Shown one piece after another: positions 5,830-60,295 of a stretch of 64,000 nucleotides of DNA; positions within the stretch are counted from its first letter, which is position 1; the number at the start of each line of letters is the position of its first letter. The stretch covers positions 1,213 through 65,212 of the forward strand of contig JBAZEZ010000003.1 of NCBI GenBank assembly GCA_041653615.1. Direction: 5' to 3'. This DNA comes from Candidatus Ratteibacteria bacterium (GTDB taxonomy: Bacteria > Ratteibacteria > UBA8468 > MWAK01). A program made the translations under genes and the position numbers. A model generated the notes under the pieces. It made no database searches and had not been told where the DNA came from. It worked only from the letters and a program-made list of their open reading frames with translations.

Positions 5830-6228
5830 ATGGTTAATGACCCAATTGGAGATTTATTGGTGCGCATCAAGAACGGGGGAAGCGTAAAGAAGGCGGAGAT
5901 AAGTGTGCCTTGCTCCCGGATGAAAGAGGCGATTCTTAAGATTCTTTCCGGAGCAGGATATGTGGCCGGTTATGAATCCCGGGAAAAATCAGGCCGAAAA
6001 GAATTGGTGGTAAAATTGAAATACGATTCCCGTTCTGTTCATGCGATTAAAGGTGTCAAACGAATGAGCACGCCGGGCTGCCATATTTATCTTTCCAGTT
6101 CCGAAATCAATCAGCGGATTAGAGGGCGGGATAAGTTGGGAATTATTTCCACTTCCCGGGGTGTAGTTTCGCATTACGAAGCTAAAAAACAAGGACTGGG
6201 CGGCAAATTTCTAGCAATAATCTGGTAG
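5830..6228 (+). CDS. rpsH: 30S ribosomal protein S8
   Basis: 132 aa; MVNDPIGDLLVRIKNG uS8 N-terminus. Confidence 0.95.
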   Translation: MVNDPIGDLLVRIKNGGSVKKAEISVPCSRMKEAILKILSGAGYVAGYESREKSGRKELVVKLKYDSRSVHAIKGVKRMSTPGCHIYLSSSEINQRIRGRDKLGIISTSRGVVSHYEAKKQGLGGKFLAIIW

Positions 6229-12506: not shown

Positions 12507-13133
12507 ATGAAAACAAGAGCGCCAGTTTGTAAAATCTGTCGTCGCGAAGACACGAAATTATTTCTAAAAGGCCAGCGGTGCTTAACGGCGAAATGCGCCA
12601 TAGACAAAGGACGACCGACGCCTTCCGGAAACAGCCGGTATTCCAGCCCGAATTCCACCTATCGTCTCCAGCTGCGGGAAAAGGAGAAAGTCCGTTCTTT
12701 TTACGGCGTTTTGGAAAGACAGTTTCGACGTTATTTTGCCATGGCTCAGAAGAGCGGTCAGGCTCCCGGCGAAAAACTGCTTATTTTCTTGGAACGGCGG
12801 TTGGATAACGCTTTAGTTGTTGTCGGTTTGCTGCCTTCCAGGCGTTCTGCCCGTCAGTTAATCGGCAGCGGTCATATTCGGGTAAACGGTCGTCGCATGA
12901 GCATCCCTTCTTATTTGGTTGCTAACGGTGACGAAGTGGAATTCCGGTCCGGTTCCCGGGTTTTACCAAAGCTGAAGGAAATGATTCTGGCCGGCGGTGT
13001 GACAAAACAGTGTCCGACTTGGCTGAATCTGGATAAGGAAGCGGTCAAGATTAAAGTTCTGCGGGAACCTTCCCGGAGTGAAATTTCCGTCCCGGTGGAG
13101 GAGGGTCACATCGTTAACCTTTACTCACGGTAA
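12507..13133 (+). CDS. rpsD: 30S ribosomal protein S4 (zinc-binding N-terminus)
   Basis: 208 aa; CKICRREDTKLFLKGQRC plus S4 domain. Confidence 0.95.
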   Translation: MKTRAPVCKICRREDTKLFLKGQRCLTAKCAIDKGRPTPSGNSRYSSPNSTYRLQLREKEKVRSFYGVLERQFRRYFAMAQKSGQAPGEKLLIFLERRLDNALVVVGLLPSRRSARQLIGSGHIRVNGRRMSIPSYLVANGDEVEFRSGSRVLPKLKEMILAGGVTKQCPTWLNLDKEAVKIKVLREPSRSEISVPVEEGHIVNLYSR

Positions 13134-13151
13134 TTTACAGAAGGAAAAAAT

Positions 13152-13946
13152 ATGGAGCAATTTAAATACCCGACAAAGATTGAGTGGGAGAAGGATACAT
13201 ATCGTGAGACTTACGGCAAGGCTGTTGTAGAGCCGCTGGAACGCGGTTTTGCCATTACGGTTGGAAATTGTCTCCGCCGTGTCCTGCTTTCGGCGATTCC
13301 CGGCGTAGCGATTACCAGTGTCAAGATTGACGGTATCGCCCATGAATTTTCGGCGATTCCCGGCGTAAAAGAGGATGTTACTGATGTTGTTCTGAACCTT
13401 AAGCAGATAAACCTTAAGGCCAACATCACCGGACTTCCTAAAAAATTTTCCGTGACGATTGAAAAAAAGACAGAACTTTTAGCCGGCGATTTGTTTGCCG
13501 ACGCGGAAATTAGCGTTGAGAATCCAAAATTGCATATTGCCACTCTTTCCAAAGGAGCTACGCTGAAGTTAGAGTTAACGGTCAGCCAGGGGTTTGGTTA
13601 CGTGCCGGTCGGACGGATAGTCGAGGAAGGAGTACCTATCACTACTATTCCTTTGGCGGCTTCGTTCAGTCCGATTACCCGGGTTTCTTACCGTATCGAA
13701 AATACGCGGGTAGGACAACGGGTTGATTACGAAAGGCTGTTGTTGGAAATCTGGACAACCGGTTCTATTACACCTAAGGATGCGGTAAAGCACGCTACCG
13801 AGATTTTGAACAAGCATTTTAACCTGATTGCCGGAAACGGTGAGGCGGACGGAATAAAAACACCGAAAGAACCTTTAGTGAAAGCCAGTCTTTCGGAAAA
13901 ACCTTCAGTCAAGAAGGCTGCTCCGAAAAAAACAAAAAAAAGTTGA
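13152..13946 (+). CDS. rpoA: DNA-directed RNA polymerase subunit alpha, N-terminal domain only (264 aa, Lys-rich tail, no recognisable alpha-CTD)
   Basis: alpha-NTD dimerisation/assembly motifs (AITVGNCLRRVLLSAIPG, two Rpb11-like segments); ends in KKAAPKKTKKS roughly 65-80 aa short of typical RpoA. Confidence 0.85.
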   Translation: MEQFKYPTKIEWEKDTYRETYGKAVVEPLERGFAITVGNCLRRVLLSAIPGVAITSVKIDGIAHEFSAIPGVKEDVTDVVLNLKQINLKANITGLPKKFSVTIEKKTELLAGDLFADAEISVENPKLHIATLSKGATLKLELTVSQGFGYVPVGRIVEEGVPITTIPLAASFSPITRVSYRIENTRVGQRVDYERLLLEIWTTGSITPKDAVKHATEILNKHFNLIAGNGEADGIKTPKEPLVKASLSEKPSVKKAAPKKTKKS

Positions 13947-13952
13947 GGGTAG

Positions 13953-14303
13953 ATGCGACACCAACGAAGAAAAAGGGTTAATTTAAACCGAGGTCGCCGG
14001 GCCGGAGTTTTCAATTCTTTGCTTAAGGGGTTGATTATCCACGGAAAGGTTAAGGCTTCTACGGCCCGCGTCAAACAGATACAGGTTTTGGCGGAAAAGA
14101 TAATTACCATGGCTAAAGAAGATTCGGTGGCCAGTCGGCGCCGGATATTTTCCTACCTGCAGGATGAAACCATGGTGAAGAAGTTGATGTCTGAAATCGC
14201 CCCGCGTTATCAGGGTCGCAACGGTGGCTATACTCAGTTATTTAAGCTTGGTCCCCGCCAGGGCGACGGATGCGAACTTTCCCAGCTAACCTTCCTGCCG
14301 TAA
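13953..14303 (+). CDS. rplQ: 50S ribosomal protein L17
   Basis: 116 aa; MRHQRRKRVNLNRGRRAGVF... bL17. Confidence 0.93.
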   Translation: MRHQRRKRVNLNRGRRAGVFNSLLKGLIIHGKVKASTARVKQIQVLAEKIITMAKEDSVASRRRIFSYLQDETMVKKLMSEIAPRYQGRNGGYTQLFKLGPRQGDGCELSQLTFLP

Positions 14304-21499: not shown

Positions 21500-24400
21500 A
21501 TGAATATTTTCAAAAAAGTCCGAACCATTTTTATTCTTTTCAGTTTTCTGTTTTTTTTCTCGGTTACCGCGCAATCCACGGTTACGGAAGACGTCGCCTA
21601 TTTTTCTTCCCTGACGTCCCGGGTGCCCGGTTATCCGGGCAATAAAGCGGCGGCCGATTATATTTCGGCTCGGTTCCGGTCGCTTGGTCTTCAGGAAATA
21701 AAAAGGGAGGCCTATTCCGTAACTGTTCCGGTGGAAGAGTTTTCCACCCTGGAGTATCAGGGGAGGAAGATAAAAATTTCGGCTCTCTGGCCTAATCATG
21801 TGCGTACTTCCACTCTGCCGCCGGATGGAATTACCGGAAACCTGGTTTACGGCGGGGATGGTTCCCTGGTCAATTATTCGGGGAATGATCTGAAAGGCGC
21901 GGTTGTCCTGTTGGATTTTAACTGTGGATTTCGTTGGATGGACGCCGGTTTGCTGGGTGCCCAGGCGGTTATTTTTATTGCGCCGGAGGACACGACTTTT
22001 TTTGAAGCCCGTCGGAAATTTTTGAGTATACCGTTGGATTTACCCCGCTTTTATGTTACGCGCGAAGATGCGGATTTTTTGCTTTCCAAATTGAGGCGGG
22101 CTCAAAATACCAAGGCCGTTAACTCAGTACCGGTGAAACTTTCATGCCGGCAGAGCTGGCAGAAGGCGCCGACGGAAAATATTCTGGGTTATATAACCGG
22201 CACCGACCCTAAATTACGAAATGATATTATCTGCCTTTCAGCCTATTACGATTCGAATTCAGTAGTTCCTTCCCTGGCGCCCGGTGCGGATCAGGCCAGC
22301 AGCATCGCCGGACTACTTGATCTTGCCGCTTACTTCAGCCAGAATCCTCCCCGGCGGACCATTCTTTTTCTGGCTAACGGCAGTCATTTTCAGACCCTGC
22401 GGGGTATGGGTGATTTTGTTAAGCGGCACTACCGCAAAGAAAAAACTTTTTTAACCAAAGAGATGGAACCGATTAATCTGAAGCTATTAATCGGGCTTGA
22501 ACTTTCCAGTCATTCCGACCTTTTGGCGACCTACCATAACAGCAGTGAATTATATGCCCAGCGATATTTTGCTCCGTTCGCCAAAAAATTCCTGGAATAT
22601 GTCCCGGCTGCTTTTTCGGGCAAACTGCTTAACGGCGTCAGTCCGGAAAGAGGAGTGGCTTTTTCCGCTTTTCTTCCGGAAGGTATTAGCACCGACGGTT
22701 CCCTTTCTATCCGTTTCGGGTTGCCTTCCCTTTCTTTTGTAACCGTTTATGACAACCGGCGATATTTTGACACTCCGGTGGATATTGCTGCCCGCGTTGA
22801 CATCGGAAAATTAACAACCCAGGTTGAACTATTGCGCCAGATGCTGTACCGGGCATTTAATGATTCGGAATTTTTTCCGGAGGCGGAGCTTGCGTTCAAT
22901 GATTCCGTGCGCACCTTAAGGGGCCGCATCGTTTCTTTTGACCCGAAGACCAGTTTTGTTCCCAATCAGCCGGTGGCGAACGCGATTGTTTGCCCCAGAT
23001 ATCTTTATGTTTCTTATCAAAACCGTAAGAGTGCCTACGGAGTCCGGGGTGAATATTTGGAGTTGACTGATGCAAAGGGACGTTTTACCATTAACCAGAT
23101 TTTTGCCAATTGGGGTATTCTTGAGGCTTTTTATCTAGACCCGGAAAACGGTCGGATTACGATGGCTCCGGACCGGGGCGTTAACGGCGCGGAAAATTAT
23201 CCGATGAATTTTACTTTTGACGCGCCGGTCAAGGACTGGTCGATTGTCCTTTTTAACTGCGTCAGTACCAATCTCTACGATTTTATCGACCCCAGATATT
23301 TAATCGGATTGGATAAGATGGATGTTTTTAATTCCGCCAATTCTATTCCGTCCGCTTACGGTTTTTCATATCTGGAACTCCGTTCTTGGGAGTGGTCTTC
23401 CGAGGTGGAGCCGGCGGCGGTTATTTATTCCGAGCCGGGCATGGAGATTAAAGTTGCCGGAGAAACCGGTCCCCTGGGGAAAAGGATACTGCTCTTGAAT
23501 TCTCCCGACAGCAAGACCAAGGCTGATTCGGAAGGCTTGGGTTATCCGTTGACTGACGATTCGTCTCTGCTTACGCTTACTCCCTACCGGGCCTGCCGGG
23601 ATATGATTAACCTCAACGATTACCGGATCAATAATTTCAAGCAGTTCGGTATTTCCAACGAAAGGCTGCTCACCCTTCACGAAGAGGCAAAAAAATGGTT
23701 TTCCGTCGCATCCGAAAACCTGGCTCAGTTTAACTGGTATTCTTTTTTGACCAACAGCCGGCGAGCGGTTGGTCTGGAATCACGGGCTTATCCGGACGTG
23801 CAGGCTACAACCAATGATGTAATTAAAGGTCTTATTTTCTATTTTATTATTCTCCTGCCCTTCGCTTTTTTCAGCGAGAGGCTCTTTTTTGGTTTTACCG
23901 ATATCCGGAAACAAATTGCCGGAATTTTTACCATATTTTTAGCCGTTTATTTAGCTTTGCGCTTTGTTCACCCCGGTTTTCGTTTGAGCAACAGTCCGGA
24001 GGTTATTTTACTGGCTTTTATCATTCTCGTTCTTTCCGTTTTGGTCATTTTTTTAATTGCCGGTAAGTTTGAAGAACAGATGCAGCGTCTGAAACGAGAG
24101 CGGGCCAAGGTTTACGAAACCGACGTGGGACGCATTGCCGCCACCGGAGTTGCTTTTAACCTTGGAATTGCCAATATGAAACGGCGGAAACTCCGTACCA
24201 CGCTTACGGCGATTACCCTGATACTGTTAACTTTTACGGTCATCTCTTTTACTTCCATCAAGAGTTACCTTAGTTTTAATCAGGTGGCCAGAGGGTATTC
24301 GCCCGCCTATGAAGGGTTGATGATCCGGGACCGTGCTTGGTCTCCTTTGGAAGAACTCGGCTATGAGTATGTCAAAAATGAGTTTTCCGAAAAGGCGGTT

Positions 24401-25891
24401 GTGGCTTCCCGTTCCTGGTTGTTGAATCCGACTATTGAAGATAAGACTTTTACTCGCGTGGCCTACGGAAAACAGGAGACTTTTGTTTCAGGGTTGTTGG
24501 GTTTGACAGTCCAGGAACCGTTGGTTACCGGTTTCGACCGGTTACTAGTGGCCGGAAAATGGTTTGGAACTGATACGGAAAAATCGGTTATTATTTCGGA
24601 AAATATGGCCAAGAACCTTAACTTCCCTGTTTCGGAACTTGGTCAAGGCCAGGTAAATATTTTCGGAGAGGACCTGAAGGTCGTGGGGATTGTTTCGGAT
24701 GCGAAACTTAACGATTACAGTGATTTGGACGGTGAGCGGTTGACGCCGGTTGATTTTGCGATGATGCCTAGCCAGGAGATGAGCAAATTCAAGATGGAAC
24801 ACGCCGCCAACGTGATGTCCGGAGGCGGAAACACCAAAACCTTTACTCATCAGGAAGCGGCCAACGTGGTCATCGTGCCGTTCCAGTTCCTGCGCCAGCG
24901 CGGAGGTACCGTCCAGTCAATGGCGGTTAAATTCAATCCCGGTTATGAAACTCGGAAAGAGATTGAGGATTTCGTTTCCCGGCTGGCAGTGACGATTTTT
25001 GCCGGGATTAACGGTAAGACTTCGGTTTATTCGTCTCTTGGATTAACTTCTTTTTCCGGAATAGGGAATCTCTTTATTCCCATCCTGATTGCCAGCTTGA
25101 TTGTTCTCAATACCATGATGGGCGCGGTTTATGAACGTATCCGGGAAATCGGTATTTACAGCAGTGTCGGTTTGGCGCCCAGTCACATCGCCGCTCTTTT
25201 CTTCGCGGAAGCCTGCGTCTATTCGGTTCTGGGCGCGGTGGCCGGTTACCTGTTAGGCCAGGTGGTTTCCAAGGCCCTCCTGACGGCTGGTCTGCTGAAA
25301 GGTCTGACGCTGAACTATTCCTCTCTTTCCGCGGTTAGTTCTACCATCATTGTTATGGCCGTGGTTTTTATTTCCACTATTTTCCCGGCCCGTAAGGCTT
25401 CGCAGATGTCTGTTCCGGATGTTACGCGGCGGTGGGTTTTGCCTAAGCCGGACGGAGACGCCTGGGTTTTTGGTTTTCCATTTACGGTCGGAGAAGGCGA
25501 AGTCCTGGGTTTAATGACTTTTTTGCGTGATTATTTTTCTTCCTATTCGATTGAGGCGGTTGGTTATTTTTATACCGCTGATAACAAATTATTTGAAGAG
25601 ACCGGTCCAAAGGGTAAGTCCTATGTGACTTCTTGCCGGGTGTATTTGGCGCCGTTCGATTTGGGCGTGAGCCAGCAGTTTAAACTTTCCGCGTTTCCGG
25701 CCGGGGAGTTTGGATTTTACGGAATAGAAGTCCGAATGGAACGGGAAAGCGGGGAGGGAAGTGACTGGCAACGGTTGAATCGGAGATTCCTCGACAGCAT
25801 CAGGAAGCAATTTTTAGTCTGGCGGACGATAAGTAAGGAGATTAAAGAAGATTACCGGCAAGAAGGTGAAAAGGAATTGAAGAATGGATAA
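21500..25891 (+). CDS. large fusion protein: secreted M28-peptidase-like/PA domain (catalytic residues apparently substituted), then a MacB/FtsX-type permease module and a C-terminal cytoplasmic domain
   Basis: 1463 aa; signal/TM; M28-like block with GADQASS in place of GADDNASG and YYDS in place of AHLDS; FtsX signature (MKRRKLRTTLTAITLILL plus three C-terminal TM helices IYSSVGLAPSHIAALFFAEA...). Confidence 0.65.
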   Translation: MNIFKKVRTIFILFSFLFFFSVTAQSTVTEDVAYFSSLTSRVPGYPGNKAAADYISARFRSLGLQEIKREAYSVTVPVEEFSTLEYQGRKIKISALWPNHVRTSTLPPDGITGNLVYGGDGSLVNYSGNDLKGAVVLLDFNCGFRWMDAGLLGAQAVIFIAPEDTTFFEARRKFLSIPLDLPRFYVTREDADFLLSKLRRAQNTKAVNSVPVKLSCRQSWQKAPTENILGYITGTDPKLRNDIICLSAYYDSNSVVPSLAPGADQASSIAGLLDLAAYFSQNPPRRTILFLANGSHFQTLRGMGDFVKRHYRKEKTFLTKEMEPINLKLLIGLELSSHSDLLATYHNSSELYAQRYFAPFAKKFLEYVPAAFSGKLLNGVSPERGVAFSAFLPEGISTDGSLSIRFGLPSLSFVTVYDNRRYFDTPVDIAARVDIGKLTTQVELLRQMLYRAFNDSEFFPEAELAFNDSVRTLRGRIVSFDPKTSFVPNQPVANAIVCPRYLYVSYQNRKSAYGVRGEYLELTDAKGRFTINQIFANWGILEAFYLDPENGRITMAPDRGVNGAENYPMNFTFDAPVKDWSIVLFNCVSTNLYDFIDPRYLIGLDKMDVFNSANSIPSAYGFSYLELRSWEWSSEVEPAAVIYSEPGMEIKVAGETGPLGKRILLLNSPDSKTKADSEGLGYPLTDDSSLLTLTPYRACRDMINLNDYRINNFKQFGISNERLLTLHEEAKKWFSVASENLAQFNWYSFLTNSRRAVGLESRAYPDVQATTNDVIKGLIFYFIILLPFAFFSERLFFGFTDIRKQIAGIFTIFLAVYLALRFVHPGFRLSNSPEVILLAFIILVLSVLVIFLIAGKFEEQMQRLKRERAKVYETDVGRIAATGVAFNLGIANMKRRKLRTTLTAITLILLTFTVISFTSIKSYLSFNQVARGYSPAYEGLMIRDRAWSPLEELGYEYVKNEFSEKAVVASRSWLLNPTIEDKTFTRVAYGKQETFVSGLLGLTVQEPLVTGFDRLLVAGKWFGTDTEKSVIISENMAKNLNFPVSELGQGQVNIFGEDLKVVGIVSDAKLNDYSDLDGERLTPVDFAMMPSQEMSKFKMEHAANVMSGGGNTKTFTHQEAANVVIVPFQFLRQRGGTVQSMAVKFNPGYETRKEIEDFVSRLAVTIFAGINGKTSVYSSLGLTSFSGIGNLFIPILIASLIVLNTMMGAVYERIREIGIYSSVGLAPSHIAALFFAEACVYSVLGAVAGYLLGQVVSKALLTAGLLKGLTLNYSSLSAVSSTIIVMAVVFISTIFPARKASQMSVPDVTRRWVLPKPDGDAWVFGFPFTVGEGEVLGLMTFLRDYFSSYSIEAVGYFYTADNKLFEETGPKGKSYVTSCRVYLAPFDLGVSQQFKLSAFPAGEFGFYGIEVRMERESGEGSDWQRLNRRFLDSIRKQFLVWRTISKEIKEDYRQEGEKELKNG

Positions 25892-27842
25892 AAAAGAAAA
25901 CATATTCCCGCAGCCGGATGGTTTCGAAAGCGGTTTTAATATCAAAACTTTGTTCGCGGCTCTTTTTGTCGGTTTTATTATGCTGCCGGCCGGTATTTAT
26001 ATGGGTTTGATTGCCGGAACCAGCTTGGGTGCCGCCGCCCAGTGGGTAACGCTCATCCTTTTTGTCGAAATAGCCAAAAGGTCTTTTGTTCAGTTGCGGC
26101 GTCAGGAGATTTACCTCATTTTTATCGTGGCAAATTCCCTGATGATGGTGGGCGCGGCCGGTATTACGAACGGCGGCGCGTTCAGTTCGTTAATCTGGGA
26201 ACAGTATTTTGTTCAGTCGCCTTACGCTAAAGCTTTCGGACTTTCCAGTCAGATTCCGCTCTGGGCTGTTCCGCCGGCCGGCAGCGCCGCGCTCATCCAG
26301 CGCACCTTTTTGAGTAAAGTCTGGCTTGTTCCGATACTCATCCTTTTAGCAACCCAGATATTGAGCCGGGTCAATGCTTTTACGCTCGGATATTATTTTT
26401 TCCGGGTTACCAGTGATTTTGAGCGGCTGGAATTTCCGATGGCTCCGGTGGCGGCGGAAGGGGTTTGGGCGCTGACCGATCTTTCCGCTAAAAAAGATAC
26501 CAATCGCTGGCGCACCTTTGTTACCGGAGGCATGATCGGCATTATTTACGGTGTTTTTTATGTTTTCATTCCCACTTTTACCGGGTTGGTAATGGCTAAG
26601 CCGTTTACGCTTATCCCGATTCCTTTTGTCGATTTCACCAGCCAGGTAAGCTCCATTTTTCCGGCTTCGGTTCTGGGTTTTATGACCGACCTGGGCAACG
26701 TTTTTGCCGGTTTTGTCCTGCCTTTCTGGGTAGTGCTGGGTACCTTTGTCGGTTCCGTCGGGGCGCAGACTATTGCCAACCCGATTTTGTACAAGCATAC
26801 GGATTTTTTGAAAACCTGGCAGCCGGGAATGGGCGCTATCCCGGCCTATACGTCCACTACGATTGATTTTTGGATAAGCGTCGGAATCGGTCTGGGTATT
26901 ACGGTTTTAATTTTGAGTATCATCTCGGTTATTTCCAAAATTAGACAGAGAGAAAAGAAAACTCAAGCCGCAACTAAAATACCGGCGAACCGGGGTGATT
27001 CTCCCCTGGTGGTTATGCTGGGAATTTGGGCTCTTTCCACCCTCGTCTACGTGGTTCTTTGCCACGTGCTGGTACCTAAGTTTCCGTTACCTTTGATATT
27101 GTTTTTCGGTTTTATCCTAACCCCGGTGCTCACGTATATTTCCGCCCGGATGTTCGGCATAACCGGGGTTGCCAGCGGAATTTCTTTCCCCTACCTGACG
27201 GAAGGAACCTATATCCTTTCCGGCTACAAAGGCGCGGATATCTGGTATATGCCCTTGCCTTATTTCAATCACGGAGGAATGGCTCAAGGTTTCAAGCAGA
27301 TGGAGTTGCTTAAGGTGCGTTTTACGGATTGGTATAAGACCGAATTTATGGCTTTAGGGATAATGCTTTTTTGTAGTTTTCTTTTCTGGTCGGTCATCTG
27401 GAAGATGGGGCCGATTCCTTCGTCAACCTATCCTTTCGTTCAGCGGATGTGGCCGATGATGGCTATTCCGCGGGCGCTCTGGGTTTCCTCTACCGTTCAT
27501 GGGGGCGCCACCTGGCTGCTGGATTCGATTAAGGGTTCAATAATCGGCTGGAGCGCGGTCGGAGGTTTGGCTACGGCGGGAATCTTAGCCCTCTGTAAAG
27601 TACCAATTTCATTTTTTTACGGGATAGTAGGCGGAATTCCAATGTTACCGCATTACACTATTCCGATGTTTTTCGGAGCTCTATTAGGCAAATTTTTCTT
27701 TGCCCGGCGCATCGGTGTTAAAGAATGGCAGAAGATGACGCCGCTGCTTCTGGCCGGTTACGGTTGCGGTATGGGATTGGCCGGGGCGGCTTCAGTTGCC
27801 GTTGCCCTGATCGCCAAAACGGTGTTTCAATTGGTTTATTAA
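25884..27842 (+). CDS. polytopic integral membrane protein (about 14-16 TM), hypothetical; translationally coupled to the upstream fusion protein
   Basis: 652 aa, overlaps upstream stop by 8 nt; Gly/Trp/Pro-rich TM helices; family not recognised. Confidence 0.55.
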   Translation: MDKKENIFPQPDGFESGFNIKTLFAALFVGFIMLPAGIYMGLIAGTSLGAAAQWVTLILFVEIAKRSFVQLRRQEIYLIFIVANSLMMVGAAGITNGGAFSSLIWEQYFVQSPYAKAFGLSSQIPLWAVPPAGSAALIQRTFLSKVWLVPILILLATQILSRVNAFTLGYYFFRVTSDFERLEFPMAPVAAEGVWALTDLSAKKDTNRWRTFVTGGMIGIIYGVFYVFIPTFTGLVMAKPFTLIPIPFVDFTSQVSSIFPASVLGFMTDLGNVFAGFVLPFWVVLGTFVGSVGAQTIANPILYKHTDFLKTWQPGMGAIPAYTSTTIDFWISVGIGLGITVLILSIISVISKIRQREKKTQAATKIPANRGDSPLVVMLGIWALSTLVYVVLCHVLVPKFPLPLILFFGFILTPVLTYISARMFGITGVASGISFPYLTEGTYILSGYKGADIWYMPLPYFNHGGMAQGFKQMELLKVRFTDWYKTEFMALGIMLFCSFLFWSVIWKMGPIPSSTYPFVQRMWPMMAIPRALWVSSTVHGGATWLLDSIKGSIIGWSAVGGLATAGILALCKVPISFFYGIVGGIPMLPHYTIPMFFGALLGKFFFARRIGVKEWQKMTPLLLAGYGCGMGLAGAASVAVALIAKTVFQLVY

Positions 27843-34471: not shown

Positions 34472-35440
34472 ATGAATATCTTTCTCCCCCTAAAAATTCT
34501 GGCTGATTGGTTTACCTTTCAAGTTTTTCGGGTTCCCCGTGAAACCCTGGCCGCGGAAGCCGTGAATTTTTTCATCTTTGATACGGTCAAAATCTTTATA
34601 CTTCTCCTGGTAATCATTTTCACGGTGTCAATTATCCGTTCATTTTTGCCGCCGGAAAGAGTACGGGCAATTCTACTGCGTAAGAATAAATATGCCGGTA
34701 ACGTCCTGGCCTCTCTGTTAGGTATTATCACCCCGTTTTGCACCTGCAGCGCCATTCCGCTCTTCCTGGGGTTCGTGGAAGCCGGCGTGCCGCTTGGAGT
34801 TACCTTTTCCTTCTTGGTTTCTTCCCCGATGATTAACGAGGTGGCTTTAATTATGCTGGCGGGAATGTTCGGTTGGAAAATCGCCCTGGTCTATATTGTG
34901 AGCGGTTTGATAATCGCTATTGTTTCCGGGATTATTATCGGTTCCCTGAGAGTTGAAAATTTGTTGGAGGATTTTGTTTTACAAAATAAGATAGACGCTT
35001 CTTATTTCGGCACAAAATTATCGTGGCCGGAAAGAATGGCATACGCTAAAAGCTATACCGGTGATATTCTAAAAAAAGTTTGGCCTTACGTGTTGGTTGG
35101 AATCGGGGTAGGCGCCTGGATACACGGTTACGTGCCGGCCAATTTTTTGGCAAAGTTTGCCGGGGCCGGGAAATGGTACGCGGTGCCGCTGGCAACGCTT
35201 ATCGGAATTCCGCTTTACTCCAACGCGGCCGGCATAATTCCGCTGGTCAGCGCTTTGACGGAAAAAGGGGTTAGCCTGGGAACCGTTCTCGCTTTCATGA
35301 TGGCGGTCACTGGGTTGTCCCTGCCTGAATTTTTGATTCTGCGGCGGGTAATGAAAGCGAAACTCGTTTTTATCTTTGCCGGCATTGTGGGTGTCGGAAT
35401 TATTTTTACCGGTTATTTGTTTAACCTGATATTAAAATGA
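34472..35440 (+). CDS. DUF318/ArsP-type permease
   Basis: 322 aa; TPFCTCSAIPLF motif of this permease family; co-located with arsR and redox-active disulfide protein. Confidence 0.75.
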   Translation: MNIFLPLKILADWFTFQVFRVPRETLAAEAVNFFIFDTVKIFILLLVIIFTVSIIRSFLPPERVRAILLRKNKYAGNVLASLLGIITPFCTCSAIPLFLGFVEAGVPLGVTFSFLVSSPMINEVALIMLAGMFGWKIALVYIVSGLIIAIVSGIIIGSLRVENLLEDFVLQNKIDASYFGTKLSWPERMAYAKSYTGDILKKVWPYVLVGIGVGAWIHGYVPANFLAKFAGAGKWYAVPLATLIGIPLYSNAAGIIPLVSALTEKGVSLGTVLAFMMAVTGLSLPEFLILRRVMKAKLVFIFAGIVGVGIIFTGYLFNLILK

Positions 35441-35832
35441 ATAATTCCCTGAAAGAATTAACCGGTATTTTTAAAGCCCTGGGTGACCGGAACCGGTTTC
35501 GAATTGTCAAAATGCTGCAGAAGAGACCGCTTTGCGTCTGCGAAATCAGGGAAATTTTGGGTATCTCTCAGCCGGCTGTTTCCCGTCATGTAAATATCCT
35601 GAAGAACGCCGGACTGATAGAGGATGAAAAGAACGGAGTCTGGAATAATTGTCGGCTTCCCGAAATCATTCAAAATGAATCGGTTGCCGCAATCCTAAAA
35701 TACCTTGAATATCGCGGCAACAAAGACGGCCGAATAATTAGTGATTGCCGGAAAGCGTCTGGCGTTAATCGTAAAGATATTTGCGCCCGAAAGAAGAAAA
35801 GAGTTCCTTCTCCCCTGCGGGGAGAAGGTTAG
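35437..35832 (+). CDS. ArsR/SmtB-family transcriptional regulator
   Basis: 131 aa; wHTH LCVCEIREILGISQPAVSRHVNILKNAGLI. Confidence 0.85.
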   Translation: MNNSLKELTGIFKALGDRNRFRIVKMLQKRPLCVCEIREILGISQPAVSRHVNILKNAGLIEDEKNGVWNNCRLPEIIQNESVAAILKYLEYRGNKDGRIISDCRKASGVNRKDICARKKKRVPSPLRGEG

Positions 35833-35860
35833 GGTGAGAGAGAAGGGGGGGGGAAGATGA
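35810..35860. repeat. palindrome CCTTCTCCCCTGCGGGGAGAAGG followed by a G-run; related to the CTCCCC/GGGGAG element inserted in rimO
   Basis: perfect 9-bp stem hairpin overlapping the arsR stop; same CTCCCC-N4-GGGGAG architecture as 54870-55020. Confidence 0.5.
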
Positions 35861-36087
35861 AGATTGAAATTCTCGGTTCTGGTTGCGCTAAATGCAAACA
35901 ACTCAACGCTAGCGTAAAAACAGCCGTAAAAGAATTAGGATTGTCGGTTGAGGTTGTTAAGGTTACCGAGATTGCCAAAATCGTTGCTTACGGCGTGATG
36001 CTGACACCGGCCCTGGTAATTGACGGTAAAGTCAAATCAAGCGGCCGGAACCTGTCTGTTGCCGAAATCAAGAAAATTATTTCCTAA
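35857..36087 (+). CDS. small thioredoxin-fold redox-active disulfide protein
   Basis: 76 aa; GCAKCK motif; VIDGKV; classic partner of the DUF318 permease and ArsR. Confidence 0.8.
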   Translation: MKIEILGSGCAKCKQLNASVKTAVKELGLSVEVVKVTEIAKIVAYGVMLTPALVIDGKVKSSGRNLSVAEIKKIIS

Positions 36088-36096
36088 GCAAGGGAG

Positions 36097-36681
36097 ATGA
36101 TAATGTCGAAAAAAACTATCAGCAAAACAGTTTTTCTGGTTATTTTAGTTGTTATGTTTGCTTTGTTTATGTTACAGCAAAAAGGCAAGCAATCTGTTCC
36201 TGCGCCAAATGTTCCGGTGGTGGAAAAAACAGAGGCGGCCATATCCGGGTTTCGCCGAGGCGAGCTTCGTCCAGACGAGCCGAACTTGCTTTCTTCGGCT
36301 CAAGATATAAGCAAGAGCGAAAAGAAATTACCTGCCCAAAGCAGCACCGTTAAGGTAAAAGAAAAGCAGGTAGGTCCTGCGCCGAATCAAAAATTACCCC
36401 GCCTGGTTGACTTGGGTGCCAAAACGTGCGTTCCCTGTAAGATGATGGCGCCTATCCTGGAAGAATTGCGGAACGAATACAAAGGGAAACTACAGGTTGA
36501 ATTTATTGACGTGTGGGAAAATCAATCAGCCGGAGACCATTATAAAATACGGTTTATTCCCACCCAGATTTTCTTTGACCCGTCCGGAAAGGAGTTATTT
36601 CGCCATGTAGGTTTTATGAGCAAAGAAGACATTTTGTTTAAATGGTGGGAACGGGGTCTTAATCTAATTGCCGAACATTGA
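36097..36681 (+). CDS. membrane-anchored thioredoxin-like protein (CxxC)
   Basis: 194 aa; N-terminal TM; CVPCKMMAPILEEL thioredoxin active-site context. Confidence 0.7.
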   Translation: MIMSKKTISKTVFLVILVVMFALFMLQQKGKQSVPAPNVPVVEKTEAAISGFRRGELRPDEPNLLSSAQDISKSEKKLPAQSSTVKVKEKQVGPAPNQKLPRLVDLGAKTCVPCKMMAPILEELRNEYKGKLQVEFIDVWENQSAGDHYKIRFIPTQIFFDPSGKELFRHVGFMSKEDILFKWWERGLNLIAEH

Positions 36682-37387
36682 TACAATGTACGCGCTTTTT
36701 AATTATCTGGCGCACGCAATTGAAGGGACTCCTTTAATTGCTGTTTCTGCCTCTATCGCGTGGGGTATCTTAAGCATTCTTCTTAGTCCCTGCCATCTGG
36801 CAAGTATTCCACTTATCGTAGGATTTATTAATGGGCAGGGAAAGATATCTACCAGAAGGGCGTTTTCCGTATCCGTTATTTTTGCTTCCGGAATCCTTCT
36901 GTCGATAGCGCTTGTCGGGGTAATTACGGCCGCAGCGGGAAGAATGTTGGGCGATGTCGGCAGGTTTGGAAATTACTTCGTCGCAGTTATCTTTTTCATC
37001 TTCGGTTTGCATCTGATCGGCGTCATCCCGCTGTCATTTTCCGGCCCGGGGCAAATTGCCATGAAGCGAAAGGGGACGGCGGCGGCGTTTATCCTGGGGC
37101 TTGTTTTCGGAATTGCGTTGGGTCCGTGCACTTTTGCCTATATGGCTCCCATGCTTACGGTTGCCTTCAAGCTGTCGGCAACCAACCTGGTTTACGGTTT
37201 GTTATTGTTTCTTTCGTACGGGGTAGGACATTGTTCGGTAATTATTTTTGCCGGAACTTTTACGGAGGTTGTCCAATATTACCTCAATTGGAGTGAGAAG
37301 TCAAAAGGAGCAATAATTTTGAAAAAAATCTGCGGCTTACTGGTTGTTCTGGGTGGTGTATATATGCTTTATACTATACGGAGATAA
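36668..37387 (+). CDS. ccdA: cytochrome c biogenesis / disulfide-reductant transporter CcdA (DsbD transmembrane domain)
   Basis: 239 aa; two conserved Cys in TM segments (SPCHLASIPL ; GPCTFAYMAP). Confidence 0.8.
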   Translation: MPNIDTMYALFNYLAHAIEGTPLIAVSASIAWGILSILLSPCHLASIPLIVGFINGQGKISTRRAFSVSVIFASGILLSIALVGVITAAAGRMLGDVGRFGNYFVAVIFFIFGLHLIGVIPLSFSGPGQIAMKRKGTAAAFILGLVFGIALGPCTFAYMAPMLTVAFKLSATNLVYGLLLFLSYGVGHCSVIIFAGTFTEVVQYYLNWSEKSKGAIILKKICGLLVVLGGVYMLYTIRR

Positions 37388-37390
37388 CTA

Positions 37391-38443
37391 ATGATGAAAG
37401 AATCAATTACGAAAAAGTTGTTGTTTTTGGACCGTTATTTGACGCTATGGATTTTTTCGGCCTTGATTTTCGGGGTCAGCCTGGGGTATTTCATCCCATC
37501 CATTGCTGGTTTTTGGGACCGGTTTACTTTCGGCACTACCAATGTCCCCATCGCCATCGGCCTGATTTTGATGATGTATCCTCCGCTGGCTAAAGTCAAA
37601 TACGAAGAACTCGGTGATGTTTTCAAAGACTGGAAAATATTGGGTATTTCCCTTTTGCAGAACTGGGTAATCGGTCCGATCTTGATGTTTTTTCTGGCGA
37701 TCGTTTTTCTGCGGGGATATCCGGAATATATGGTCGGGCTGATTATGATCGGGCTGGCCCGCTGTATTGCCATGGTAATTGTCTGGAACGACCTGGCGCA
37801 AGGCGACACTGAATACGCGGCCGGACTGGTGGCGTTTAACAGTATTTTTCAGGTGTTGTTCTATTCTGTCTTTGCCTGGATATTTATCACTAAATTACCG
37901 CCGTTGTTCGGCCTCAAGGGAATTGCCGTGAACATTACCATCGGGCAAATCGCCAAGAGTGTTTTTATCTATCTCGGCATTCCTTTCCTGGCGGGACTTG
38001 TTACGCGTTTTGGGTTGCTTAAGTTTAAGAGTAAAGAATGGTATCATACCAAATTTATCCCCAGGATAAGCCCGCTTACTCTGATTGCGCTTCTTTTTAC
38101 CATTGTGGTTATGTTCAGTCTGAAAGGCGGGTATATCGTAAAAATTCCGCTGGATGTTGTCCGGATTGCCATTCCGTTGTTGATTTACTTTGTGGTAATG
38201 TTCCTGGTGAGTTTTTACCTGGGCAGGCGATTTAAAGCCGGTTACGCTAAAACCACTACGCTGGCTTTTACCGCCGCGAGTAATAATTTTGAATTGGCGA
38301 TAGCGATGGCGGTGGCCGTTTTCGGAATTAATTCAGGCGCTGCTTTCGCGGCGGTAATCGGTCCGCTGGTGGAAGTGCCGGTGATGGTCGGGTTGGTCGG
38401 TGTTGCTTTACGCCTTAAAAACATGCGTCAGGCCCCGGCCTGA
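37391..38443 (+). CDS. acr3: arsenite efflux transporter, ACR3 family
   Basis: 350 aa; [11 protein letters not shown]...[21 protein letters not shown]3 signature. Confidence 0.85.
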
Positions 38444-43451: not shown

Positions 43452-46400
43452 ATGGTTACCCAAAAAAGAATAATGTCGGCATTAGCGGCACTTATGCTTA
43501 TTTTTGGCATAGGCGCATCTATCTATGCGCAAGGAAACAAGTGGGAGAATCTTAACGACCAGGTTATGTCATTGTACAGTCAAGGTCAATACGAGCGTGC
43601 TGTAGTGGTTGCAAAAGAGGCGTTGCAGGTTTCCGAACAATCTTTTGGACCTAACCACTCTTCTACGGCTACAAGCCGGAACATCCTTGCGTTGTTGTAT
43701 AAAACCCAGGGCCAGTACGGACAGGCCGAGCCGCTTTACAGGCGTTCGCTGGCGATTGACGAAAAAGCTTTCGGTCCGGACCATCTTAATGTGGCCACAG
43801 ACTTGGATAACATCGCGGGGTTGTGTTATGCTCAGAAGCAGTATGCTCAAGCAGAGCCGTTCTACAAACGTTCGTTGGCAATCAGGGAGAAATCTTTCGG
43901 TTTGGATAATCTTGGAGTGATTTCAAGCCTGAACAATCTCGCGGGGTTGTACTATACCCAAGGTCGTTACGCTCAGGCCGAACCGCTTTTCAAACGTTCT
44001 TTGGCAATCCGGGAAAAAGTTCTCGGTCCGAATAACCTTGAGGTGGCAGCGAGTTTGAATAACCTCGCGGAAATGTATTATGCCCAGGGCCGTTACGTGC
44101 AGGCCGAACCGCTTTACAGGCGCTCGCTGGCGATACGGGAAAAAGCTCTTGGTCCGGATTATCCGGATGTGGCGACAGACCTGAATAATCTTGCGGGACT
44201 GTACTATGCCCAAGGACGTTACGCTCAGGCTGAGCCGCTCCTCAGACGTTCGCTGGCAATCCGGGAGAGGACTTTGGGCAAGAATCATCCTGATGTGGCC
44301 GCGAATTTGAACAACCTCGCTGAAGTGTATGATGCCCAGGGACAGCATGACCAGGCCGAACCGCTTTACGAGCGTTCGCTGGTAATCCGGGAGAAGGTTT
44401 TTGGCAAGAATAATCTTGATGTAGCCGTAAGCCTGAACAACCTTGCGGGGTTGTATTCTGCCCAAGGCAAATATGCCCAAGCCGAGCCGTTCTATAAGCG
44501 CGCTCTGGCAATTAGGGAAAAAGCGCTTGGTCCAAACAACCTTATGGTGGCCGCGAGTCTGAATAACCTCGCGGACCTATACTATGTTCATGGCCAATAT
44601 GCTCAGGCCGAGCCGCTTTACAAACGTTCGCTGGCGATCCGGGAAAAGGCTCTTGGTAAGAACCACCCTGATGTTGCCTCCAATTTGAGCAACCTCGCGG
44701 GTTTGTATTATGCCCAGGGCCAGTACGTAAAGGCTGAACCTCTTTACAAGCGCTCTTTGGCAATCAGGGAGAAAGCTTTCGGTTCTGATAACTTTGCTGT
44801 AGCCGTGAGCCTGAACGACCTCGCAGGTTTGTATTATGCCCAAGGTCAATATACGCAGGCCGAACCGCTCTATGCGCGCTCGTTGGCGATCCGGGAAAAA
44901 GCTTTCGGCTCGGATAATCTGGCGGTGGACACAGACCTGAATAACCTCGCAGAATTGTATTATGCCCAGGGCCAATACACTAAGGCCGAACCGCTCTACA
45001 AACGCTCGTTGGCAATTAGGGAAAAAGCTTTTAGTCCGGATAGCCTTGAGGTAGCTGCGGGTTTGAATAATCTTGCGGACCTGTATTATGCTCAGGTCCG
45101 GTACGCTCAGGCTGAGTCGTTGTACAAGCGGGCATTAGCGATCGACGAGAAAGCTTTCGGTCCAGATAACCTTGCGGTAGATACAGACCTGAATAATCTT
45201 GCGGAACTGTTTTATGCCCAAGGCCAGTATGTTCAAGCCGAGCCGTTTTTCAAGCACTCTTTGGCGATACGAGAGAAAGCTCTCGGTCCAGAAAATCTTT
45301 TAGTAGCCGCGAGCCTGAACAGTATAGCAGACCTGTATTATGCCCAGGGCAAGTACGCGCAATCTGAGCCGTTCTATACGCGTTCTTTGACAATCAGGGA
45401 GAAAGTTTTCGGCTTGGACAATCTAGCGTTGGATACAGATCTTACCAATCTCGCGAATCTATATTATACCCAAAGTCATTATGCCCAGGCCGAGCCGCTC
45501 CTCAGGCGTTCGCTGGCAATAAGAGAGAAGGCTTTTGGTCCGGATAACCTTGCGGTAGCAACCAGCCTGAACAGCATAGCAGACCTGTATTATGCCCAGG
45601 GTCAGTATGCTCAATCTGAGCCATTCTATAATCGCTCGCTGGCAATCAGGGAGAAATTTTTCGGCGCCGATGACCTTGCGATGGACACAAACTTAAATAG
45701 TCTTGCGAACATGTATTATGCTCAAGGGCAATATGGCCAGGCCGAACCGCTTTACAAACGCTCGCTGGCGATACGGGAGAAAGCTCTCGGTCCGGATTAT
45801 CCCGACGAAGCCACAGATTTGAGCAACCTCGCGGGTTTGTATTATGCCCAGGGCCAGTACGTAAAGGCTGAACCGTTCTATACGCGCTCGCTGGCGATTA
45901 GGGAGAAAGCTTTCGGATCTGATAATCTTACGGTGGATACGGATTTGAATAACCTCGCGGAGCTTTATTATGTTCAGGGCCAGTACGCTAAGGCTGAACC
46001 TCTTTACAAGCGCTCTTTGGCAATCAGGGAGAAAGCTTTCGGTTCTGATAACTTTGCTGTAGCCGTGAGCCTGAACGACCTCGCAGGTTTGTATTATGCC
46101 CAAGGTCAATATACGCAGGCCGAACCGCTCTATGCGCGCTCGTTGGCGATCCGGGAAAAAGCTTTCGGCTCGGATAATCTGGCGGTGGACACAGACCTGA
46201 ATAACCTCGCAGAATTGTATTATGCCCAGGGCCAATACACTAAGGCCGAACCGCTCTACAAACGCTCGTTGGCAATTAGGGAAAAAGCTTTTAGTCCGGA
46301 TAGCCTTGAGGTAGCTGCGGGTTTGAATAATCTTGCGGACCTGTATTATGCTCAGGTCCGGTACGCTCAGGCTGAGTCGTTGTACAAGCGGGCATTAGCG

Positions 46401-46925
46401 ATCGACGAGAAAGCTTTCGGTCCAGATAACCTTGCGGTAGATACAGACCTGAATAATCTTGCGGAAATTTATTATATTCAGGATCATTACGCTCAGGCCG
46501 AGCCGCTCCTCAGGCGTTCGCTGGCAATAAGAGAAAAGACTTTTGGCCCCAACCACCCTGGTGTGTCCACAAGTCTGAACAACCTTGCGGATTTGTACTA
46601 TTCCCAAGGCAATTATGGCCAAGCCGAACCGCTTTACAAACGTTCGCTGGCAATTGACGAAAAAACTCTCGGTTCGGATCATCCCGAAGTGGCAATAGAT
46701 TTGAACAATCTCGCGGGTTTGTATTATGCCCAAGGCCATTACGCTCAGGCCGAGCCGCTTTACAAGCGTTCTTTGGCAATTTGGGAAAAAGCTCTCGGTC
46801 CAAATCACCCCAATGTGGCTACGAGCCTTGATAATATGGCGGTGCTCTGTCGAAAAAGCGGTAGAGAAAAAGAAGCAAAGGCGCTGGAGACGCGAGCTGC
46901 AGCCATCAGGGCAATTAAGCGTTAA
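43452..46925 (+). CDS. secreted or lipid-anchored protein built from about 26 tandem 42-aa TPR units (kinesin-light-chain-like)
   Basis: 1157 aa; signal peptide; unit consensus [42 protein letters not shown] repeated throughout. Confidence 0.8.
   Translation: [1157 protein letters not shown]
44728..45206. repeat. 479-bp perfect internal direct repeat, copy 1, within the TPR gene
   Basis: identical to 45988-46466 (offset 1260 bp = 10 TPR units). Confidence 0.85.
45988..46466. repeat. 479-bp perfect internal direct repeat, copy 2
   Basis: identical to 44728-45206. Confidence 0.85.
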
Positions 46926-47034: not shown

Positions 47035-47838
47035 ATGGTTAAAGAAGACAGAAGCGGCAACGATGAGAAAGGGCTGATTTTTTACCATCGGGCCTACCGG
47101 ATATTTCCCTCCGGAGGTGTTCGCCGCCATACTATTGAAATTCTGCTCCTTTTCCTTCTTTTCGGCCTGATAGTATACCTCCTGTTTCCCTTGGCAACCA
47201 GGTTAACAAGTTATTTTTCCAAACAGGTTCTTTCCTACGTTATGCCTCCCAATACGCTTCAAATAATACAAAAGCCGTTTTTGTTCCGGCATGTTTACAT
47301 GATTGACCGCATCGGTAAATTTCCCGGAGCATTTTTTCTGTTAATTACCCTTATTATAACCCTGCTGATCATGATTGTCGTCCCGCGCCTGAAAAATATT
47401 CCTAAATCTTTTGGGACATGGATATCTTTAGCCGCCGCGATAAACATGATATCCTGTCTCTTTTTCCTCTTTTTTTCAAACCGGTTTCCTTACGATATCA
47501 GGATTTTTTCCGAACTTTACGTGGAAACGCAGGTTATTATCTGGTTTTTGATTGCTTTTATTGTGCCCATGGCCCTGGCGCCGTTTCCCGTAAATATTTT
47601 TTTGAAAATAGGCGTTACCGGTTTCATCCTGGCTTATTCTGTAATCTTTGGTTGCGCGCGCTATATTATTTTTCTCTACATACTGACCAAACACAGTTAT
47701 TTGTTTATGGCCCCGCTCTTTTTTATTTTCGGCCCGCTGGTGGATTCCGTTTACATTATAGGCATCTATTCTCTTTTCATAAGCCTCGTTGCCACTAAAA
47801 TGAAGGGAGTTATGACAAAATGGCGCTGGTCATATTGA
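47035..47838 (+). CDS. polytopic membrane protein, hypothetical; first gene of the exopolysaccharide-like operon
   Basis: 267 aa; 6-8 hydrophobic helices; overlaps the start of the downstream GT2 gene. Confidence 0.5.
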   Translation: MVKEDRSGNDEKGLIFYHRAYRIFPSGGVRRHTIEILLLFLLFGLIVYLLFPLATRLTSYFSKQVLSYVMPPNTLQIIQKPFLFRHVYMIDRIGKFPGAFFLLITLIITLLIMIVVPRLKNIPKSFGTWISLAAAINMISCLFFLFFSNRFPYDIRIFSELYVETQVIIWFLIAFIVPMALAPFPVNIFLKIGVTGFILAYSVIFGCARYIIFLYILTKHSYLFMAPLFFIFGPLVDSVYIIGIYSLFISLVATKMKGVMTKWRWSY

Positions 47839-55632: not shown

Positions 55633-55735
55633 TTGCCGAGCTTGCTCGGCGCGGTTGTTTTGTTGTAGGGGAGGGGCTCTGTCCCCTCCCGTGGTGGGCG
55701 GGGATGTAACCCCGCCCCTACATTAACACTTTCCT
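55633..55735. repeat. multi-hairpin intergenic repeat, copy B
   Basis: GTTGCCGAGCTTGCTCGGCGC + TGTAGGGGAGGGGCTCTGTCCCCTCCCG + GGCGGGGATGTAACCCCGCCCCTACATTAA between convergent rimO and pilQ; likely also a bidirectional terminator. Confidence 0.7.
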
Positions 55736-60164: not shown

Positions 60165-60295
60165 GTAGTCGCCCGGCTTGCCGGGCTCCGTTTTTTTCTT
60201 GTAGGGGAGGGGCTTTGTCCCCTCCCGCAGTAGGACAGGCGTCCCGCCTGTCAAATCGCGGGCGGGGATGTAACCCCGCCCCTACATTAAAATTT
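60165..60295. repeat. multi-hairpin intergenic repeat, copy C, in the pilM-pilN spacer
   Basis: GCCCGGCTTGCCGGGC + TGTAGGGGAGGGGCTTTGTCCCCTCCCG + GGCGGGGATGTAACCCCGCCCCTACATTAA; about 90% identical to copy B over the latter modules. Confidence 0.7.

Follow-up and report, generated by a model that had tools for sequence, protein, structure and literature searches.

The window, by which we mean the whole 64,000-nucleotide stretch of DNA that was analysed, carries rpoA in the canonical alpha operon position, rpsM-rpsK-rpsD-rpoA-rplQ, a gene order common to its relatives (Table 1). A 264-residue rpoA between rpsD and rplQ, with rplQ beginning directly 3' of its stop codon, had been described in an earlier, sequence-only reading of this DNA, and both statements were confirmed by the coordinates of the ORFs and by the Pfam matches of the neighbouring genes. 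The start codon of rplQ follows 6-7 nt past the rpoA stop, and the basic tail of the protein is encoded at the usual place of the linker and the alpha-CTD. In the sequence scan no terminator-like site was seen between rpoA and rplQ, and neither promoter nor terminator signals around rpoA rose above chance; rplQ is apparently co-transcribed with rpoA. The gene content of the genome includes TonB/ExbBD, type IV pilus/secretin components, anthranilate synthase and an ars-type operon. The window is without an rRNA operon.

Table 1. Features of the rpoA locus, with coordinates in the window
Feature	Position	Strand	Basis
rpsD (ribosomal protein S4), upstream neighbour	12507..13133	+	PF00163 E=1.4e-22, PF01479 E=6.1e-15
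Candidate Shine-Dalgarno-like GAAGGA, 6 nt 5' of the rpoA ATG	13140..13145	+	putative, read from the sequence
rpoA ORF, ATG start, 264 aa, C-terminal ...KPSVKKAAPKKTKKS	13152..13946	+	
rpoA part for the alpha-NTD (dimerisation/assembly), residues 1-227	13152..13832	+	Pfam, NCBIfam, AlphaFold2, dN/dS
rpoA part for the 37-residue disordered basic tail GNGEADGIKTPKEPLVKASLSEKPSVKKAAPKKTKKS	13833..13943	+	no family match, low pLDDT
A8 run, 1 nt shorter than in related rpoA genes (ACAAAGAAAAAA there)	13934..13941	+	DNA alignments
-1 frame continuation KLRVDATPTKKKG and stop, ancestral rpoA C-terminus, open	13940..13981	+	translation, match to the ends of P0001-P0010
Stop codon (TGA) that ends the 264-aa rpoA allele	13944..13946	+	read from the sequence
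rplQ (ribosomal protein L17), downstream neighbour	13953..14303	+	PF01196 E=1.5e-27

The alpha-CTD (PF03118) is a helix-hairpin-helix domain with the 265 determinant, flexibly linked to the NTD. In the window RpoA both families of the NTD were detected by Pfam (PF01193, the Rpb3/Rpb11-type dimerisation domain, E=1.6e-24, residues 27-223; PF01000, the RpoA insert domain, E=1.3e-25, residues 57-173), and PF03118 gave no match even at E<=1. In the NCBIfam rpoA equivalogs residues 1-230 aligned to model positions 1-230 of about 320. The protein passed NF003519 (285.7 bits, cut-off 277) and TIGR02027 (257.9 bits, cut-off 227.8), and with six other NCBIfam rpoA sub-models it stayed under the cut-off, as it lacks the C-terminal third. 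For NF001988, the model of the archaeal RNA polymerase subunit D, the score was no more than 29.8 bits, the cut-off being 153. Alpha subunits of the PDB could be aligned to the window RpoA over residues about 10-241 only. In the AlphaFold2 model, which was built with a 53-sequence alignment, residues 1-230 had block-mean pLDDT values mostly about 90 (range 75-95), the last helix being at 208-226, and residues 233-260 had pLDDT below 50 and no secondary structure. Since both confidence and secondary structure are missing here, the tail is predicted to be without a fold and to hide no cryptic CTD. The proposal that the ORF encodes an alpha-NTD followed by a Lys-rich tail thus stands, and so does its counterpart that no alpha-CTD is encoded in the rpoA ORF: Pfam, NCBIfam, AlphaFold2 and the custom CTD HMM described below were all negative for this domain, and neither HMM nor fold evidence was obtained for a Lys-rich region that folds as a CTD.

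The closest homologues of the window protein (P0001-P0010) come from Omnitrophota MAGs deposited at NCBI, JGI, ENA and Logan. They are 78-92% identical to it, are mostly 271-291 aa long and contain PF01000 and PF01193 only; the length of P0006 (326 aa) is due to 46 extra N-terminal residues. Together with the window sequence they make up a clade of 11 sequences from independent sources, with complete ORFs inside long contigs, and its members include GCA_018829455.1, GCA_043826355.1, GCA_026387085.1 and CAZBFL01. When genome contigs were scanned with full-length RpoA, no more than three species representatives from this clade came up, and the window's own genome was not among them. The next group (P0011-P0014, 304-315 aa) shares 70-71% identity with the window protein over the aligned NTD and 62-64% over the full length, and these proteins, as well as all more distant homologues in the same search, carry PF03118. 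Alignment with the RpoA of relatives therefore agrees with the absence of the domain from the window protein, the whole clade being likewise CTD-less and the outgroup P0011-P0014 keeping the CTD. The CTD-less relatives are syntenic (rpsM-rpsK-rpsD-rpoA-rplQ-UDPGP-exbB-exbD-tonB). The gene of the CTD-bearing P0014 (locus L007) occupies this ribosomal operon in another genome, thus it is the orthologue of a sister lineage and not a paralogue. An assembly of that sister lineage is GCA_043797665.1.

For the NTD, dN/dS was 0.04-0.13 at dS 0.46-0.60 (window against two relatives), which indicates that the gene is functional and has been under strong purifying selection since the loss of the CTD. The GNxLRRxLLS motif was invariant in the NTD alignment. 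Judged from these comparisons, the gene is an intact NTD-only rpoA kept across one shallow clade, and neither a fragment nor a pseudogene. We think it likely that this is a true, functional rpoA, belonging to an uncultivated member of the Omnitrophota in whose lineage the alpha-CTD was lost.

The function of the CTD might still be provided from elsewhere, by a stand-alone alpha-CTD gene, by a second full-length rpoA or by a helix-hairpin-helix domain fused to an RNA polymerase subunit or factor. A custom CTD HMM was therefore derived from 108 homologue CTDs and searched on six-frame translations. It was positive in every control locus (L007 and L012-L020, including one of Nomurabacteria; E 1e-17 to 1e-33, the value for L007 being 1.7e-17). 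In the 64-kb window no separate CTD was found by this HMM, and no CTD was found in the largely syntenic loci L001, L003, L008, L011 and L022 (about 70 kb). A marginal match at 35833-36084 (E=0.07) turned out to be a thioredoxin (PF13192). An untethered CTD is not known to have any way to act, since the domain needs the linker to the NTD for its function. The window copy stands in the canonical operon position under strong purifying selection, and the CTD-bearing P0011-P0014 are orthologues of other genomes with the same synteny, not paralogues. What favours a CTD elsewhere is the limited extent of the inspection, which covers about 64 kb here and, for four related genomes, some 10-20 kb in the surroundings of rpoA, the contigs ending just upstream of rpsJ. 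A precedent also exists in Francisella, in which two rpoA genes are reported to coexist (PMC3294249). However, no match was obtained in any inspected sequence while every control CTD was found, and we regard a CTD encoded elsewhere as improbable.

The borders of the genes indicate how the domain disappeared. In the relatives, rpoA overlaps rplQ by 29 nt (L004: 2819-3646 and 3618-3968), and in the CTD-bearing sister L007 the overlap is 28 nt and the protein ends with ...TEGGKG. According to the DNA alignment, the 3' ends of the CTD-less and the CTD-bearing rpoA genes are homologous, and the CTD-coding stretch of the sister is replaced in the CTD-less genes by a shorter, unalignable A-rich segment. 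Since the homologous 3' overlap occurs in both groups, the loss came about by internal deletion and divergence and not by 3' truncation. Similarity to the sister CTDs was not detected in any frame of the tail DNA (best E at least 0.13 in a five-sequence database, as compared with 4e-46 to 6e-12 for the control).

The window gene differs from its relatives at the very end. In the DNA alignments the relatives read ACAAAGAAAAAA where the window reads ACAAAAAAAAG, one base fewer, and this deletion in the A-run ends the window ORF 12 codons early and abolishes the usual 29-nt overlap with rplQ. The relatives P0001-P0010 end with ...K(L/P)xxNATxxKKKG, and the continuation of the window gene in the -1 frame matches this end; that frame is open to the ancestral stop at 13979-13981 and overlaps the rplQ start by 29 nt. 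The same A8 allele with a 264-aa rpoA was seen in L022 and L023, both of them independent Logan assemblies (SRR18595300, SRR6484325), and the exact 264-aa protein (P0269) is on record at NCBI (MFA5393137.1, MFA7328543.1), JGI, ENA and Logan. In 29 neighbouring genes no frame break was found relative to a relative. Because the short allele recurs unchanged in independent assemblies and in several databases and the 29 neighbours are intact, it is not the error of one assembly, and a sequencing error could be ruled out on the same evidence. These comparisons show that the lineage of the window later lost one A in the homopolymer, which trimmed a further 12 residues from the protein.

The sequence-only reading had pointed to a possible frameshift near 13900-13950. 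The discrepancy of one nucleotide is real, and it lies in the A-run; the CTD that might have stood behind it does not exist, for the restored frame adds only KLRVDATPTKKKG before the stop (12-13 codons, giving a 276-aa product). That a frameshift or mis-assembly in this region hides a frame leading into a normal CTD thus has in its favour a true difference in homopolymer length (A8 instead of ACAAAGAAAAAA) exactly at the ORF end, but frame restoration gives 12 residues and then runs into rplQ, and with rplQ starting so soon past the stop there is no room for a CTD. Moreover, the allele is identical across independent assemblies and databases, the relatives without the frameshift are also CTD-less, the neighbouring genes are free of frameshifts and CTD similarity is seen in no frame. 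The short continuation and the lack of CTD likeness in every frame rule out a hidden CTD, and we attach practically no weight to an artefact of this kind.

A different explanation of the A-run would be that both ends of the protein are made, -1 ribosomal frameshifting or transcriptional slippage restoring the 276-aa C-terminus in some of the molecules. Such an isoform would carry a ...KKTKKKLRVDATPTKKKG C-terminus in place of the ...KKTKKS of the 264-aa allele. The A AAA AAA AG run resembles the dnaX-type slippery heptamer A AAA AAG, and the -1 frame is open as far as the ancestral stop. The openness of this frame is forced by L17 coding, however, the extension is short and lies over the rplQ start, and an SD-like stimulator upstream of the A-run is not evident in the sequence. 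Eight A residues are also at the low end for efficient slippage. We therefore think it very unlikely that two isoforms are produced or that the longer C-terminus is formed in this way.

CTD-less alpha subunits were also found outside the Omnitrophota. When 1.84 billion cluster representatives were searched and the results were passed through the CTD HMM, P0163, P0191 and P0219 emerged as other complete NTD-only RpoA proteins with Lys-rich ends. Many short, seemingly CTD-less cluster representatives were frameshifted or chimeric gene calls or fragments and were not counted. The gene of P0163 is part of an S13-S11-S4-rpoA-L17-L13-S9 operon. Among the matches listed, 120 of 120 homologues of P0163 carry only PF01000 and PF01193; nearly all are 252-292 aa long, and two (201 and 216 aa) look partial. 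Their records carry the labels Berkelbacteria, Saccharimonadales or Patescibacteria group, and they are on contigs of up to 0.8 Mb. Since all of these 120 listed homologues are CTD-less, the alpha-CTD appears to have been lost widely in part of the CPR; the Nomurabacteria locus L019 has a CTD by the CTD HMM. The window RpoA is closer to the CTD-bearing Omnitrophota proteins over the full length (62-64%) than to those of the CPR (about 45% identity), and the loss is therefore taken to be independent in the two groups.

The 37-residue tail of the window RpoA has a pI of 10.0 and a net charge of +6 and ends with KKAAPKKTKKS. In the clade the tails are 37-64 residues long, with pI values of 9.1-10.3 and net charges of +2 to +12, as compared with 0 to +2 for the linker and CTD region of P0011-P0014. 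The charge is concentrated at the end: the last 15 residues of the window protein carry +7, and of the 64 non-overlapping ORFs compared in the window only the one for ribosomal protein L2 has a more basic C-terminus, so that RpoA ranks second. Over the same 15 positions, the median net charge was +7 in the 11 Omnitrophota clade proteins (at least +4 in 100%), +5 in 118 CTD-less CPR RpoAs (at least +4 in 88%) and -1 in 108 CTD-bearing RpoAs (at least +4 in 5%). The mean pairwise identity in the clade was 42% for the tail and 89% for the NTD, and the tail DNA contains 43% A as compared with 25% in the window.

A tail of this kind could simply be what was left over when the CTD was gone, a functionless piece of the old linker and read-through sequence whose Lys-richness comes from A-rich DNA serving the translation initiation of rplQ and the overlapping N-terminus of L17. 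In the clade the last nine codons of rpoA overlap rplQ, and the block just upstream of them lies in the rplQ ribosome-binding region. The MRHQRRKR start of rplQ (MRHxRRKR in the clade) forces ...TPTKKKG (...TKKKG) in the overlapping rpoA frame, thus the demands of L17 expression could account for some of the Lys-richness. The high A content of the tail DNA is in line with this explanation, and so is the fast, indel-rich evolution of the tail. In the lineage of the window the last 12 residues have gone with no harm apparent, and this tolerance argues for a weak constraint on the tail. However, the polybasic block reaches 5' of the overlap (KKxxPKKTKKK), its composition is kept in 11 of 11 clade members, and the truncated allele still has +7 over its last 15 residues. 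Furthermore, the CTD-less rpoA genes of Patescibacteria have no overlap with rplQ (in L025 rpoA ends at 5831 and rplQ starts at 5842), yet 88% of their products end at +4 or above, as compared with 5% of the CTD-bearing ones. Since the CPR genes do not overlap rplQ, the Lys-rich end cannot be a by-product of overlap there. Indirectly, and with the non-overlap in the CPR as the main argument, this points to selection on the polybasic terminus.

The other explanation is that the linker and the polybasic peptide form a convergent minimal substitute of the alpha-CTD, by which sequence-independent contact with upstream DNA, an aid to the association of RNA polymerase with promoters, would be kept in the Omnitrophota clade as well as in a large part of the Patescibacteria, whereas the folded domain that reads sequence and docks activators would be gone. 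We put this forward tentatively, as a possibility that we would sooner doubt than accept; the convergent polybasic C-termini lend modest support to the speculative notion that the tail makes sequence-independent DNA contacts. Its main rival is the neutral remnant described above, which is favoured by the fast divergence and the further truncation, and which we take as a serious possibility without calling it probable.

The alpha-CTD reads UP elements at strong promoters and docks CRP-type and many other activators. E. coli alpha(1-235) supports core assembly and basal transcription, and it does not support UP-element or class I activation. By analogy with this construct and with the CTD-less alpha of B. 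subtilis (RpoA-del), an NTD-only alpha would be expected to dimerise and to nucleate alpha2-beta-beta' assembly, and for the window protein we infer dimerisation and core assembly also from the conserved NTD, the GNxLRRxLLS motif and the dN/dS values. Basal sigma-directed initiation would work with such a subunit. On the same analogy, UP elements would not be read by the CTD-less RNA polymerase, and class I activators as well as other factors docking on the alpha-CTD could not recruit it. Since both inputs would be missing, promoter strength should rest on sigma/-35/-10 contacts and on activators touching sigma or beta/beta'. The change in promoter architecture that had been proposed from the sequence, with no UP elements and another kind of activator coupling, is thus an expectation drawn from these analogues. 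More speculatively, the flexible Lys-rich tail may give weak, sequence-independent electrostatic contacts with upstream DNA, and these contacts may partly stand in for the non-specific tethering to DNA that the alpha-CTD provides.

In bacterial transcription the alpha-CTD is taken to be near-universal, and a lineage without it amounts to an in vivo experiment on how much of the regulation runs through sigma and beta/beta' alone. The present case deserves attention because of the non-eroded genome, the normal-looking gene repertoire, the close CTD-bearing sister and the tail design, which is convergent with that of the CPR. The CTD-less clade and its sister, which are about 70% identical in RpoA and agree in synteny, make a clean comparative pair, on which promoter features (UP-like A-tracts), regulators (class I activators) and partners lost together with the CTD can be addressed. 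If the tail does act as a minimal CTD, a simplified promoter and activator logic, without UP elements and class I activation, would span two unrelated groups of small-celled uncultivated bacteria. The polybasic tails in Omnitrophota and Patescibacteria make the minimal substitute a concrete and biochemically testable hypothesis. If the tail is inert, the case is one more domain loss in small-genome bacteria.

Among known systems, the alpha subunits of the endosymbionts Hodgkinia and Tremblaya have kept the NTD and lost the CTD, and the loss of UP-element recognition was predicted for them (PMC8321222). Like the window protein, these are natural NTD-only alphas. However, they belong to the eroding genomes of obligate intracellular symbionts, while the genome behind the window has an ordinary set of genes, and strong purifying selection acts on its rpoA.

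Neither assembly nor basal transcription requires the alpha-CTD (PMC8321222). B. subtilis with RpoA-del is viable, with a doubling time of 1.9 h in place of 1.0 h, and its genes for secondary carbon sources, transition state and ribosome synthesis are expressed less (PMC4495994). In domain content RpoA-del and E. coli alpha(1-235) are the same as the window RpoA, but they were made in the laboratory, entail a growth cost and lack the polybasic tail, whereas in the Omnitrophota clade the CTD-less state has been fixed in nature over a dS of about 0.5. Alpha-NTD homologues that serve as assembly platforms without an alpha-CTD-like domain are known as Rpo3 (subunit D) in archaea and as Rpb3/AC40 in eukaryotes, a kinship that shows in the Pfam family names (Rpb3/RpoA). 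Compared with Rpo3, the window RpoA is clearly bacterial, as the NF001988 score indicates. Mycobacterial HupB/Hlp, Chlamydia Hc1 and histone H1-like proteins have disordered, polybasic C-terminal tails rich in Lys, Ala and Pro, which bind DNA irrespective of its sequence. In composition they are like the ends ...PKAKKSTKKAAK of the CPR and ...KKAAPKKTKKS of the window; they share no sequence homology with the RpoA tail, which lacks their repeat structure, and DNA binding by the RpoA tail is hypothetical.

CTD loss in Parcubacteria and in microalgal plastids has been mentioned in passing (PMC8321222); in the work that this paper gives as its reference on Parcubacteria, RNA polymerase does not figure. 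No other mention of a CPR case was found in the literature searched. A CTD-less RpoA in Omnitrophota was not found in the literature searched. The Patescibacteria/CPR proteins are like the window RpoA in their NTD-only alpha, in the S13-S11-S4-rpoA-L17 operon and in a low-complexity tail with a polybasic end. They differ in that their tails (29-65 aa) open with a clearly acidic segment (median net charge -5), while those of the Omnitrophota are only mildly acidic at the start, and in that their rpoA and rplQ genes do not overlap. The loss is broad in the CPR and confined to one shallow clade in the Omnitrophota. As far as sequence comparison can tell, the Omnitrophota case is thus an additional, independent natural lineage with a CTD-less alpha subunit.

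The A8 run near the 3' end of the window rpoA (13934-13941) forms the motif A AAA AAA AG, which resembles slippery motifs of the dnaX type. Judging from the reading frames, a -1 shift at this run would bring back the ancestral C-terminus of the protein, KLRVDATPTKKKG (up to window position 13981). In locus L024 (1-140), the L17 is identical to that of the window, but the 3' end of rpoA differs: the frameshift is absent and the 29-nt overlap with rplQ is present.

Two RpoA records of the clade lacking the alpha-CTD show further peculiarities. P0006 (326 aa) carries an N-terminal extension of 46 residues, MKSPFWWRRVISLTFTHG..., which matches an out-of-frame window ORF spanning the end of rpsD (13078-13230, + strand), MKFPSRWRRVTSLTFTHG... 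Rather than being a genuine part of the protein, this extension most likely stems from a wrongly called start or from a frame error of the record. P0007, encoded at locus L008, is without the four NTD residues PKLH, which every other member of the clade has (columns ~175-178 of the protein alignment A1). This gap could be a small genuine deletion or an assembly error.

Upstream of rpsJ, two independent Logan contigs of the window's species, L027 and L028, both break at 77 nt from the gene (position 1-77). The breaks would fit a repeated gene lying upstream, probably tuf.

Elsewhere in the window, the arsenic/redox-type cluster comprises an ArsP-like permease, an ArsR-family regulator, a small thioredoxin (35833-36084), a thioredoxin-domain protein, a DsbD-type membrane protein and an SBF/ACR3-like transporter. 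The M28/MacB/FtsX protein is also a single gene in the clade locus L001 (1467 aa), and its counterpart in L008 appears as two gene calls (537 and 922 aa). Of five sizeable ORFs that gave no Pfam match (E<=1e-3 to 1e-4), three flank a family-2 glycosyltransferase and the 417-aa one sits within a type IV pilus/secretin cluster.

Coordinates of the features discussed
Feature	Sequence	Position	Strand	Length (aa)
Arsenic/redox-type gene cluster	window	34472-38443	+	
M28 peptidase + MacB-type periplasmic + FtsX permease domains	window	21500-25891	+	1463
TPR protein, nearly all repeats (TPR_12/TPR_10, >20 units)	window	43452-46925	+	1157
ORF without Pfam match	window	25884-27842	+	652
ORF without Pfam match	window	47035-47838	+	267
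ORF without Pfam match	window	49148-50200	+	350
ORF without Pfam match	window	50197-52860	+	887
ORF without Pfam match	window	57365-58618	-	417
Secretin gene, type IV pilus/secretin cluster	window	55735-57351		
PilM-like gene, type IV pilus/secretin cluster	window	60295-61824		
P0163 rpoA, CTD-less Patescibacteria/CPR	L025	5001-5831		

The alpha-CTD is also absent from a big group of Patescibacteria/CPR RpoA proteins (P0163 and 120 listed homologues, P0281-P0399), recorded under the labels Berkelbacteria, Saccharimonadales or Patescibacteria group. With few exceptions the 120 are 252-292 aa long, the contigs carrying the genes reach 0.8 Mb, and the tails open with an acidic segment and finish in a polybasic block, e.g. 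...PKAKKSTKKAAK. Such proteins were scantly documented in the literature searched. 'Parcubacteria' have been said to be without the CTD (PMC8321222), the source cited there being silent on RNA polymerase. The alpha-CTD is, however, encoded in one Candidatus Nomurabacteria genome, a CPR genome of the Parcubacteria type (L019, MFTO01000011.1, 9866-10918; custom HMM E=1.6e-19), therefore the published remark is not valid for all Parcubacteria.
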